Shown: positions 27,001 to 30,000 of the stretch, in pieces
Numbering within the stretch: the stretch's first letter is position 1
Layout of the letters: every line of letters starts with the position of its first letter
From: a virus
Lineage: Duplodnaviria; Heunggongvirae; Uroviricota; Caudoviricetes
Direction: 5' to 3' (one strand)
Length of the DNA stretch: 37,493 nucleotides
IMG/VR virus record: IMGVR_UViG_2585427621_000010
Made by a program: the position numbers

Positions 27001-30000
27001 AGCCGAAAATAAAGGGATAACGATGATAGTTTGAGAAAAACAGAAATAACACTTTTGTGGCAAAGCATGGTGCCGGGTGCCTCCCGGTGAATTCAGTATC
27101 AGCACCTGAATCCGCGATTACCCCATATTCCTTCTTGCTGATTGCCCCACCGCACAGGGGGATTCACCATGCAGAAGTGTTTTTAATAAACAGCAAACAA
27201 AAAAATCAAGCATTATGCAGGCTGTTTCTTTTTATCACCGGCCACAGCAATACCATAATGCCGCAGACCAGCACCCCATCCGCCAGCACCGACATGATTC
27301 TGCTGGTGAAATCCACCATCACCACCAGAAACAGCAGGAGTGCAGCCACAGTCAGGCGCAGTTTTACCGTCACAGGTAATTCTCCAGACGAAGACCCAGA
27401 ACACCGGCAATCTCTTCCAGCACCTTGCGCTCTTCCGGCTCAATTTCGCCGTCTGCCTCCGCAATGGCCACCGCCACATCCAGCACATCTTCCGCTTCAC
27501 GCGTATCGTGTTTCACATCCTCGATCTCACGTAACGCCGCACGACGACCAGTTTTAAAGTTCGTATCCAGCTGACCGATAATGGTTGCGCTAATCGCATT
27601 AATTTCTGACGTAAACGCGTACAGCGCAGGCTGATTACGCAGTACCTGTTCGATCTTCGCTTTCTCGGATGCCTCACATTCACCATCTGCACAGGCCACC
27701 AGGTATGCGGCGTTAATCACCACCTGTGCCAGATCGCGTTTTTCAAACTTTTTAATTTCCGTTGCCGCTCTGCGGGCTTTTTTTACCAAAAATACCAAAC
27801 ATCGTGACGTTCCTTTGGGTGGGTGAGCCAACGCCCGGGAGCGATCTGCCCACAGAGAAAGTCACACTGACCACTCCATAAGCTCCCCCCGAAAGGCTCT
27901 GTGGTTGGTATGCGCCGGGCGTGGTGCGGATACAAAAAAGGTCCGCAAAAGCGAGCGAGGGAAAATAAGTGTGGTACGTTGTACTGGGTTCGAACCAGTG
28001 ACCGATTGCTTAGAAGGCAATTGCTCTGTCCGGCTGAGCTAAAAACGCAGAATACCGATAATGGACCGCCATCGGAGACTCGAACCCCGCGAAACCAGCT
28101 TCGAAGGCTGGCGTTCTATCCCGATGAGCTAATGGCGGTATGTGATGGTGGCCCTTGCTGGATTTGAACCAGCGGCCTGGCGATTATGAGTCGCTCGCTC
28201 TCACCACTGAGCTAAAGGGCCGGGCGCAGGATAATAACGTTACGAAATCAATGTTGCAAGCATTCAAGAATCACCTGGTTAAAAATTACCCTTGCTTCCT
28301 CCACCAGCGCATTCACCATGTCTATCCGAGATAAGTGGCACAAAAAAACCCGCTTGTGGGCGGGTTTTGTTTGCTTTTGCCATCACGTACAAAATCGGCA
28401 AAATATCAGATTTGCATGAAATATATGCCTTTCAATCTACTTTTGCAACACTTTGCTTTGAAAATGCCGCCTTTTGTTTTGAACGCGTTCTCATTACAAA
28501 CAATAAAGCCTCACTATCCAGTCGGTGAAAAATGTGTTTCATTGCAACCCAGTGACGAGTAAATGTTTTGGACCAGTTTTTAGTTGTCACTCCCACCAGT
28601 AATGCCAGCTCCTTGTATTCATAACCTTCCCCACCAAAAAGTTCTGCTTTTACTGCCTGCGCCGCCAGCCAGATTAATTTTTTCAGGCGTTCCTGCGTTT
28701 TCCCTGCAATTTTTCTGGTACCGGATTGAGTATTAAATTCATTCCACGCCCACTGTGTTATCGCGATCTGATATTCCCAACAAATACTCCCGCTGTAACA
28801 CCACAACAACCAGGCTTTATGATGTTCTTCAAGAGACAGAACAGCCCGCCGCCACGATGATGTCGAAAACTCAACCGGACTGACCAGAGGAATTGACGTC
28901 ACCTTCGCCAGCGATTGCTTTCCCGGGATTGGTGGATTATCCCGCGTTATCATTTTTCCAGTCACTTCATCGCGGTACCGGATTTTTTTTCGCCTGTAAC
29001 GCCCTGTATCGAACATGACATTCTCCTGCCAGGCTTCAAGCTGACCTTTTGTTGCCCCACTCAAATCGGCGGTAGCGATAATGAGCAGCTCACGCACAAA
29101 CTGTAAATAGTGGTTATTCATGCGCACTCCAGTTCTGTGATTTTTATCCCCAGCCGCTCACCAGGAACGAGCTGACCGCGCACAATATTGATTTCATCAA
29201 ACTGCTCATCGTCCATTAGCAACCCCGCATGCGTCAGCGCATCCAGCGGCGCTTTCAGAATATTGTCCAGGTCACGGCGGCGCTTATCCGGTGGCTCGGC
29301 AATAATCTTTATCGCCAGCCTTCCGGACAGGCTTAATTTCAGCCGCTGCTGGCGAACAATAAGCGCCACAGCCCGGCGATAACGCTCACCGGCTTTTGAT
29401 ACAAAATATGTGCTGCCACGACGTCGCCAGTAGGTGTTCACCGTCGGCGGGTAAGGTAAAACCAAATCTATGAGCATCAGTCACCTCTTTTACCCGAGCA
29501 CGCCAGTCGCAAAGGCGTGATCAAGAAAACGAAAAATTAACTCAATCTGAGAGCCGTACTTTTTCTCAAACTCCAGCGGGTCTGCATGAAGTTCGTTGTG
29601 GTGCTCCCGGCACAACGGTAGCGTGAAAATATCGTGGGCCTTTGTCCCCATTCCCCCCTGACCATGACCAATCAGGTGATGCGGATCGTCAGCAGGCTTA
29701 CCACAACACGCACACGGCTGTGTCTTTACCCAGCGCGTGTATTTCTCATTAACCCAGCGGCAACGTTTAGGCCGCCTCATGAACGATTCAGGAGACTCCG
29801 GATCAACGGCGATACTGACAACCGTTTTTTTCTGTGGTGGATTTTGTTGCTGGTGGACGTGAAGTGGCAGCGCAATATTTTTTGTGCGCTGCTTCAGTAT
29901 GCTGATGGCTGTCTGTTCTCCCGGTACGATGTCACTCTCACGGTATACGGAGCGGATTTTTTCCGCTGGTAATCCCAGCGAACGACGCGCTACTGCCTCA

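Follow-up and report, generated by a model that had tools for sequence, protein, structure and literature searches.

Which tRNAs does a lambdoid prophage encode directly behind its late-gene antiterminator Q, and are all of them still fit to serve it? The question is raised by the Caudoviricetes record IMGVR_UViG_2585427621_000010 of IMG/VR (Duplodnaviria; Heunggongvirae; Uroviricota), of which a stretch of 37,493 nucleotides, hereafter the window, was analysed in full. Downstream of Q, three tRNA genes lie in tandem on the minus strand. They very probably represent the Sp14/CP-933U copy of the ileZ-argN-argO tRNA operon of lambdoid prophages. The cluster itself is already known, being named and annotated in reference O157:H7 genomes; what is new here concerns the state of this copy, in which argN and argO contain substitutions that weaken their stems, one of them (U72 in argO) unique to this sequence.

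Running ARAGORN over the whole 37.5-kb window returned exactly three tRNA genes, all on the minus strand and with a joint span of 27972-28221. A scan with the Rfam tRNA model RF00005 (Infernal; gathering score 29) independently hit the same three sites, at 61.0 bits for argO, 44.4 bits for argN and 72.5 bits for ileZ, with E-values (5.6e-11, 2.1e-06 and 3.7e-14, respectively) far beyond chance. The initial annotation, read from the DNA by eye, had placed three minus-strand cloverleaves at precisely these coordinates and with these anticodon loops, had assigned the arginine anticodons UCU and UCG to two of them, and had proposed a tRNA finder as the check; ARAGORN folds all three as tRNAs and arrives at the same anticodons. 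That the feature might be a chance cloverleaf-like sequence or a mis-call, with no tRNA genes present, is extremely improbable. Only the imperfect stems of argN and argO speak for such a view, and it has to contend with the agreement of two independent detectors, with orthologues annotated as tRNAs in hundreds of phage and prophage records, and with the existence of fully paired orthologues (for example, 82 of the 90 other argO copies in the wider sample described below are free of stem mismatches). On the strength of ARAGORN, Rfam and the paired orthologues, chance or artefact was ruled out as the origin of the three cloverleaves.

Each gene possesses a 7-nt anticodon loop with U33 and a purine at position 37 (CTCATAA in ileZ, CTTCGAA in argN, CTTCTAA in argO). 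All three have T-loops of the GTTCRANNC type (GGTTCAAATCC, GGTTCGAGTCT and GGTTCGAACCC) and encode the 3′ CCA, and the tandem spacers of 7 nt and 13 nt are those of most cassettes compared. Arginyl-tRNA synthetase (ArgRS) of Escherichia coli recognizes A20 and C35 as arginine identity elements. The D-loops of argN (AUCGGGAUA) and argO (AGCCGGACA) have A at position 20 and both anticodons contain C35, and judged by these elements either gene should yield a substrate for ArgRS.

The CAU gene, ileZ, is labelled 'Met' by ARAGORN, a name given from the anticodon alone. Yet 69 of its 76 positions are identical to the chromosomal tRNA-Ile(CAU) of K-12 MC1061, and in K-12-type strains without prophage copies this chromosomal gene is its best match (90.8% identity). 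The two have in common the acceptor stem GGCCCUU/AAGGGCC, which gives the pairs C4-G69 and C5-G68, and they also agree in the core of the anticodon stem-loop (GCGA-CUCAUAA-UCGC); these two acceptor-stem pairs are recognition determinants of TilS. RefSeq and the Sakai record both annotate the gene as tRNA-Ile. By its sequence, ileZ is a tRNA-Ile2 paralogue of the ileX/ileY type and no methionine tRNA, the comparison having been made with the host isoleucine tRNA only. Because it is such a paralogue, with the same acceptor stem and anticodon core, reading of AUA by ileZ appears well founded, and the initial suggestion that the third tRNA probably reads AUA thereby gains the backing of both the Ile2 identity and the tRNA-Ile annotation. 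It is not a plain duplicate of ileX/ileY, however: seven substitutions fall in the D-loop, the top of the anticodon stem, the variable loop and the T-loop, an A27xC43 opposition at the anticodon-stem top is present in all ileZ alleles, unlike in ileX/ileY, and ileZ is prophage-borne and multi-copy, unlike the chromosomal genes. The ARAGORN 'Met' call should here be read as Ile2.

The assignment to Sp14 comes from the surrounding sequence. Positions 27400-28900 are 99.9% identical to Sakai Sp14, to EDL933 (CP-933U) and to many other O157 genomes, and the Sakai record gives the order Q (ECs_2750), ileZ7 (cat), argN5 (tcg), argO7 (tct) and a TciA/TerB-like gene. Overall, the window, which begins at the ATG of tccP, matches Sakai Sp14 at 99.8% from 9.6 kb on and at 98.9% in the first 8 kb, with indels in the tail region; no exact match to the window was found among the complete E. 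coli genomes searched. The tail region itself (window 5000-12000) is unlike that of every complete E. coli genome searched, the best match reaching 99.0% over 94% of the query, and the host-specificity B tail gene within it (5762-6942) is not intact.

Beyond Sp14, the tRNA block matches, at 91-94.5% identity, the ileZ-argN-argO genes located between Q and stx2AB in Shiga toxin 2 (Stx2) phages, and the same cassette recurs in many E. coli and Shigella prophages of the lambdoid group, Stx phages among them. The window has Ile2(CAU), Arg(UCG) and Arg(UCU) in this order, in tandem and on one strand, and every sequence-level comparison bearing on membership of this cassette came out in favour. With the clusters of enterohaemorrhagic E. 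coli lambdoid and Stx phages (933W, Sp5, Sp15) the window shares the genes, their order, the slot after Q and tR′, and the promoter hexamers. The difference lies downstream, where Stx2 phages have stx2AB and the window has a TerB-family gene followed by a DUF3927 gene. Related E. coli cassettes hold Ile2, Lys, Thr and Gly or Ile2, Lys and Arg in place of the window's Ile2, Arg and Arg. The chromosomal argU has the same anticodon UCU and the same loop CUUCUAA as argO, which also has A20 and C35; this rare AGA decoder is taken to be clearly a different gene. The same genomic slot after Q is occupied by tRNA genes in SfI, Sf6, ST64T, PS3 and phage 21 as well, for which supplementation of rare codons has been proposed (PMC3636060); the tRNA species of SfI differ from those of the window, being Asn-GUU and Thr-UGU. 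A literature search by the gene names of the cluster, alone or combined with Shiga toxin, returned no relevant paper.

How intact is this copy? The initial annotation had drawn the acceptor stem of the UCU tRNA as imperfect and had advised a check of its ends. The imperfection is real, consisting of a G1.U72 wobble and a U6xC67 mismatch, and the ends are right, because ARAGORN and Infernal concur, the discriminator base is followed by CCA, and the alignment with orthologues whose stems are perfect runs from end to end; misplaced ends were thus ruled out as its cause. Five aligned relatives have GCGTTGT...ACAACGC with G73, a perfect stem of 7 bp, as opposed to GCGTTTT...ACAACGT with A73 in the window. 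Three of the changes in argO (U6xC67, A73 and C60 in the T-loop) are common to Sakai Sp14 and three IMG/VR copies. U72 (window position 27976), by contrast, is the sole difference from Sakai across 27900-28450, and a search of 5,426 complete E. coli genomes returned no copy of the allele containing it; the base is either private to this strain or an error of sequencing. The Rfam score of argO lies 7-9 bits below the 68.1-70.1 bits of its relatives, and the predicted free energy of its cloverleaf is −12.8 kcal/mol, versus −15.2 kcal/mol for the Sakai gene and −22.0 kcal/mol for the dominant allele.

In argN, a G24-to-A substitution, otherwise seen only in a few Sp14-type copies, breaks the C11-G24 pair and leaves a C11xA24 mismatch in the D-stem. 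Its cloverleaf is predicted at −21.6 kcal/mol, versus −28.3 kcal/mol with G24 restored, and is no longer the minimum-free-energy fold. ileZ is one variable-loop base (C47, specific to Sp14) away from the dominant allele, its cloverleaf energy is unchanged at −29.0 kcal/mol, and its only stem mismatch is the family-wide A27xC43. Taken together, the lineage-specific substitutions are predicted to cut stability by about 7 kcal/mol in argN and about 9 kcal/mol in argO. As modelled, the likeliest state of this copy would be one fully competent tRNA (ileZ) beside two weakened, redundant ones, and the lesions in argN and argO therefore make the contribution of these two to decoding uncertain.

Does the prophage have a need for such decoders? 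We compared codon usage between 38 intact coding sequences of the window (7,722 codons) and a baseline of 70 annotated Sakai backbone genes (28,413 codons); eight Sakai tail-region coding sequences were left out, seven that were not located exactly and one (hostspecB) that is not intact in the window. ATA occurs at 6.9 per 1,000 codons in the window versus 2.96 in the host genes (2.3-fold, p=5e-6), AGA at 7.5 versus 1.09 (6.9-fold, p=7e-19), AGG at 5.3 versus 0.70 (7.5-fold, p=2e-14) and CGA at 5.2 versus 3.24 (1.6-fold, p=0.01). The demand for decoders of AGA, AGG and AUA is real; that for a CGA decoder is marginal. At the level of single genes, the initial claim that cargo such as tccP is richer in these codons than the host holds in part. 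tccP is enriched in AGA only (5 of 337 codons, 13.6-fold, p=6e-5); its ATA usage equals that of the host (1.0-fold), and its enrichment in CGA and AGG is not significant against the 70 host genes. The comparison it had suggested for pch bears out the idea for AGA and CGA, with pchC exceeding host genes 26-fold and 12-fold, respectively. The espJ gene (Sakai copy, just outside the window) shows 14-fold ATA and 34-fold AGA, and stx2AB of phage PA45 shows 12-fold ATA and 13.5-fold AGA.

To place the copy within its family, we collected loci containing the exact 46-nt ileZ core, which yielded more than 120 IMG/VR loci and, with the window and five phage loci, a sample of 126 ileZ-containing segments. 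At species level, the exact core was confined to Escherichia and Shigella apart from two metagenome bins. Half of the segments (63/126) have the architecture Ile2, Arg-UCG, Arg-UCU; others have Ile2, Arg-UCU (30 copies), Ile2, Lys-UUU, Thr-UGU, Gly-UCC (15 copies), Ile2 alone (6 copies), Ile2, Arg-UCG (5 copies) or Ile2, Lys-UUU, Arg-UCU (4 copies). Of 125 ileZ copies, 118 have one and the same allele; the search itself held the 5′ 46 nt constant, but the free 3′ 30 nt are near-invariant as well. argO has 27 alleles in 99 copies and argN 31 alleles in 68 copies. Constraint across the slots is thus strongest in ileZ, followed by argO and then argN, an order that matches the weak CGA excess.

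In the 30 Ile2, Arg-UCU cassettes (L101, L046, L052, L020, L084 and others) the middle slot holds a remnant of about 80 nt, in which the acceptor and T arms of argN are kept and the D and anticodon arms are replaced by unrelated sequence; a clean deletion of argN in these two-tRNA cassettes was ruled out by its presence. The remnant may be either a pseudo-tRNA or an unrecognised RNA. The marginal CGA demand fits such frequent decay of argN. Elsewhere the argN scaffold, recognizable by C1-G72 and U73, is found with other anticodons (L003 2842-2917, L005 2723-2799, L006 2856-2932, and L035). Its UUU (Lys) form has the loop CCUUUAA, in which the near-universal U33 is replaced by C33 (14 of the 16 copies of full length), and its UCU form in L035 is one base change away. 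By sequence comparison, there has apparently been anticodon switching on one phage tRNA scaffold. A further loop variant concerns argO of the Stx2 phage PA45 (L004 2714-2790), which has G37 for A37 (loop CTTCTGA), an allele present in four sampled copies.

Lesions in two genes of one copy, and decay of the middle slot in others, could mean that the cassette is a relic: unselected in a defective prophage, with argN5 and argO7 on the way to becoming pseudogenes, other prophages supplying the tRNAs, and ileZ surviving only as it has not yet been hit. Sp14 is indeed defective, with a probably non-functional Xis and morphogenesis defects, and it is induced only via regional replication from Sp15 and not packaged (PMC2669165). 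An IS629 copy sits in its late region, between the esterase gene and the holin; about 8-11 related copies are present per O157 genome; the stem lesions of argN and argO are lineage-specific, with the losses in predicted stability and, for argO, in bit score given above; and the middle slot is visibly pseudogenised in the 30 other cassettes just described. Still, all three genes score well above the tRNA-model threshold, with anticodon loops, T-loops, A20 and CCA retained; the promoter has kept both hexamers, and tRNAs often tolerate single mismatches. Sp14-type alleles are moreover kept in more than 300 O157 genomes at an identity of at least 99%, which may reflect clonal descent, not selection. 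We regard outright decay of the cassette as possible but doubtful. The defective state of Sp14, its IS629 copy and the 8-11 related copies do make relaxed selection on argN5 and argO7 plausible. As to the insertion itself, the IS629/IS3-family element (about 23690-25000, plus strand, with an ALIL frameshift pseudoknot at 24031-24147) stands between the late promoter and the genes for lysis and morphogenesis; the holin gene lies at 23225-23431.

A function other than codon supply has to be weighed as well. Other phages are known to encode tRNAs that make good the loss of host tRNAs cleaved by nucleases, and the tRNAs of this cassette might mainly replace host tRNAs cut by anticodon nucleases (tRNA-Arg against colicin D-type enzymes, tRNA-Lys against PrrC/PARIS-type enzymes) instead of matching codons. 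Two observations lean this way: the unusual middle-slot scaffold (C1-G72, U73) may bear any of three anticodons (UCG, UCU or UUU), with C33 in its Lys form, and the demand for CGA barely exceeds that of the host, so that codon matching explains argN poorly. The anticodon arm of ileZ, however, is near-identical to that of host tRNA-Ile2 and would not escape an enzyme that recognizes this arm; the enrichment of AGA, AGG and ATA fits the simpler reading of codon supply; and the frequent decay of the argN slot argues against strong selection of any kind. We consider counter-defence as the main role very unlikely. Similarly improbable is the reading that the re-targeting of the middle-slot scaffold by anticodon change (UCG in the window, UCU in L035, and, in phages of the PPompW, Evi and 606R7 type, UUU combined with C33 for U33) serves to bypass host anticodon nucleases and not to match codon usage. 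Were this true, argN of the window would belong, as a weakened member, to an anti-defence family of tRNAs with swappable anticodons.

The surroundings of the cassette suggest how it may be transcribed. The block lies directly downstream of Q, as first proposed, a position backed by both the Pfam match of the upstream gene and its Sakai annotation (Table 1). Two late-control signals and a separate candidate promoter precede the tRNAs.

Table 1. Features of the tRNA locus in the window, in the direction of transcription (minus strand).
Feature	Position	Strand	Description	Basis
Q	28432..29121	−	Late-gene antiterminator, 229 aa	Pfam PF06323 Phage_antiter_Q, 303 bits; Sakai ECs_2750
PR′-like late promoter candidate	28420..28448	−	TTGCAA-17-TATATT, overlaps the end of Q	Consensus scan only
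tR′-like intrinsic terminator	28342..28364	−	CCCGC-CCACAA-GCGGG, then T7; putative function	Sequence reading
tRNA-operon promoter candidate	TTGCAA 28259-28254; TATTAT 28236-28231	−	Sigma-70-type, 17-nt spacer	Consensus scan
ileZ	28146..28221	−	tRNA-Ile2 type, anticodon CAU, 76 nt, CCA encoded	ARAGORN; Rfam; Sakai ileZ7
argN	28062..28138	−	tRNA-Arg, anticodon UCG, 77 nt, C1-G72, U73	ARAGORN; Rfam; Sakai argN5
argO	27972..28048	−	tRNA-Arg, anticodon UCU, 77 nt, A73	ARAGORN; Rfam; Sakai argO7
TerB-family gene	27370..27798	−	142 aa, first gene after the tRNAs	Pfam PF05099, 49.7 bits; annotation

The candidate operon promoter ends 9 nt upstream of ileZ, with the GC-rich stretch CCTGCGCCC joining TATTAT to the first base of the gene. 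Across 42 distinct sequences upstream of ileZ, which fall into 10 flank families, TTGCNN (−38 to −33) and TATTAT (−15 to −10) are the best-conserved columns and stand at fixed positions; the sequence further upstream is unrelated between flank families. In Sakai Sp5, differential RNA-seq mapped a primary transcription start to the equivalent place, in the stretch that separates tR′ from the tRNAs (Sy et al., PMC7547250). For Sp14 we infer that, most likely, the operon has its own promoter, active in lysogens, to which read-through from PR′ is added after induction. No convincing intrinsic terminator 3′ of argO was detected, either by eye or by terminator scan.

The layout of Q, terminator and tRNAs is the same in the loci L002, L003 and L004. 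The position of the hairpin between Q and the tRNAs matches a published PR′-tR′ arrangement (PMC7547250); the terminator scan reported this hairpin on the opposite strand. As the PR′-like promoter and the tR′-like terminator (together 28342-28448) are only about 70 nt apart, a short constitutive RNA is predicted, its length far below the 258 nt of the StxS precursor that Sp5 and Sp15 produce.

On the far side of the tRNAs, the TerB-family gene fills the slot that stx2AB takes in Stx2 phages (L002, L004). In the window this slot (27029-27798, minus strand) contains the TerB gene, the DUF3927 gene (27206-27373) and, after them, only a partial match to STnc100 (27029-27201; 100.8 bits); in the corresponding stretch of L004 (2881-4455), stx2AB lies between the tRNAs and STnc100 (207.7 bits), with the AsxR antisense adjoining. 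The slot between the tRNAs and the STnc100-type small RNA looks like an exchangeable cargo position. Further along, a 615-aa protein (25045-26892, minus strand) has the domains DUF1737, SASA (sialic-acid-specific acetylesterase) and DUF6645; presumably it is a prophage esterase of the NanS-p type, such as also follows stx in Stx phages. In the nin region, a match to the sok antitoxin RNA (31137-31311, minus strand; 114.9 bits) adjoins a mokC/hok-type open reading frame.

From these elements a working scheme can be proposed. During lysogeny, the operon would be transcribed from its own promoter; after induction, Q-antiterminated read-through from PR′ would add to this. The precursor RNA would be processed by host RNase P and 3′ nucleases. 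Host TilS would convert C34 of ileZ to lysidine, and the tRNA, charged with isoleucine, would read AUA. The UCU anticodon of argO would read AGA and, less well, AGG, and the UCG anticodon of argN would read CGA, plus CGG by wobble; a UCG anticodon is not known to be supplied by the E. coli chromosome. The joint effect would be more decoders for codons that are 2-7 times commoner in the prophage than in host backbone genes.

Several points weigh against this scheme, or against the reading of the copy on which it builds. The CGA enrichment is weak, and there are zero CGA codons in the three genes directly after the tRNAs. An excess of AGA, AGG and ATA is typical of A+T-richer, horizontally acquired DNA, with or without tRNAs, and since such foreign DNA shows the same codon pattern, the enrichment is no proof of selection for decoding. 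The ratios themselves are somewhat inflated because the baseline is a 70-gene sample that includes highly expressed genes. It is for Sp5, and not for Sp14, that a transcription start has been mapped. The U72 call may be erroneous; a tRNA frequently tolerates a single mismatch in a stem, and 'weakened' stands for an energy prediction. Finally, with the related copies that O157 genomes hold besides it, this copy may add little.

As a discovery, the cluster has little significance, and its presumed role in providing decoders for AUA, AGA/AGG and CGA is the standard interpretation. What this copy does indicate is that copies of the cassette are non-equivalent: with lesions in argN and argO, counts of tRNA genes overstate decoding capacity. 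And with a conserved promoter that is most likely its own, the cassette could serve genes for effectors and regulators (pchC, tccP and espJ, for example) while the prophage is still in lysogeny.

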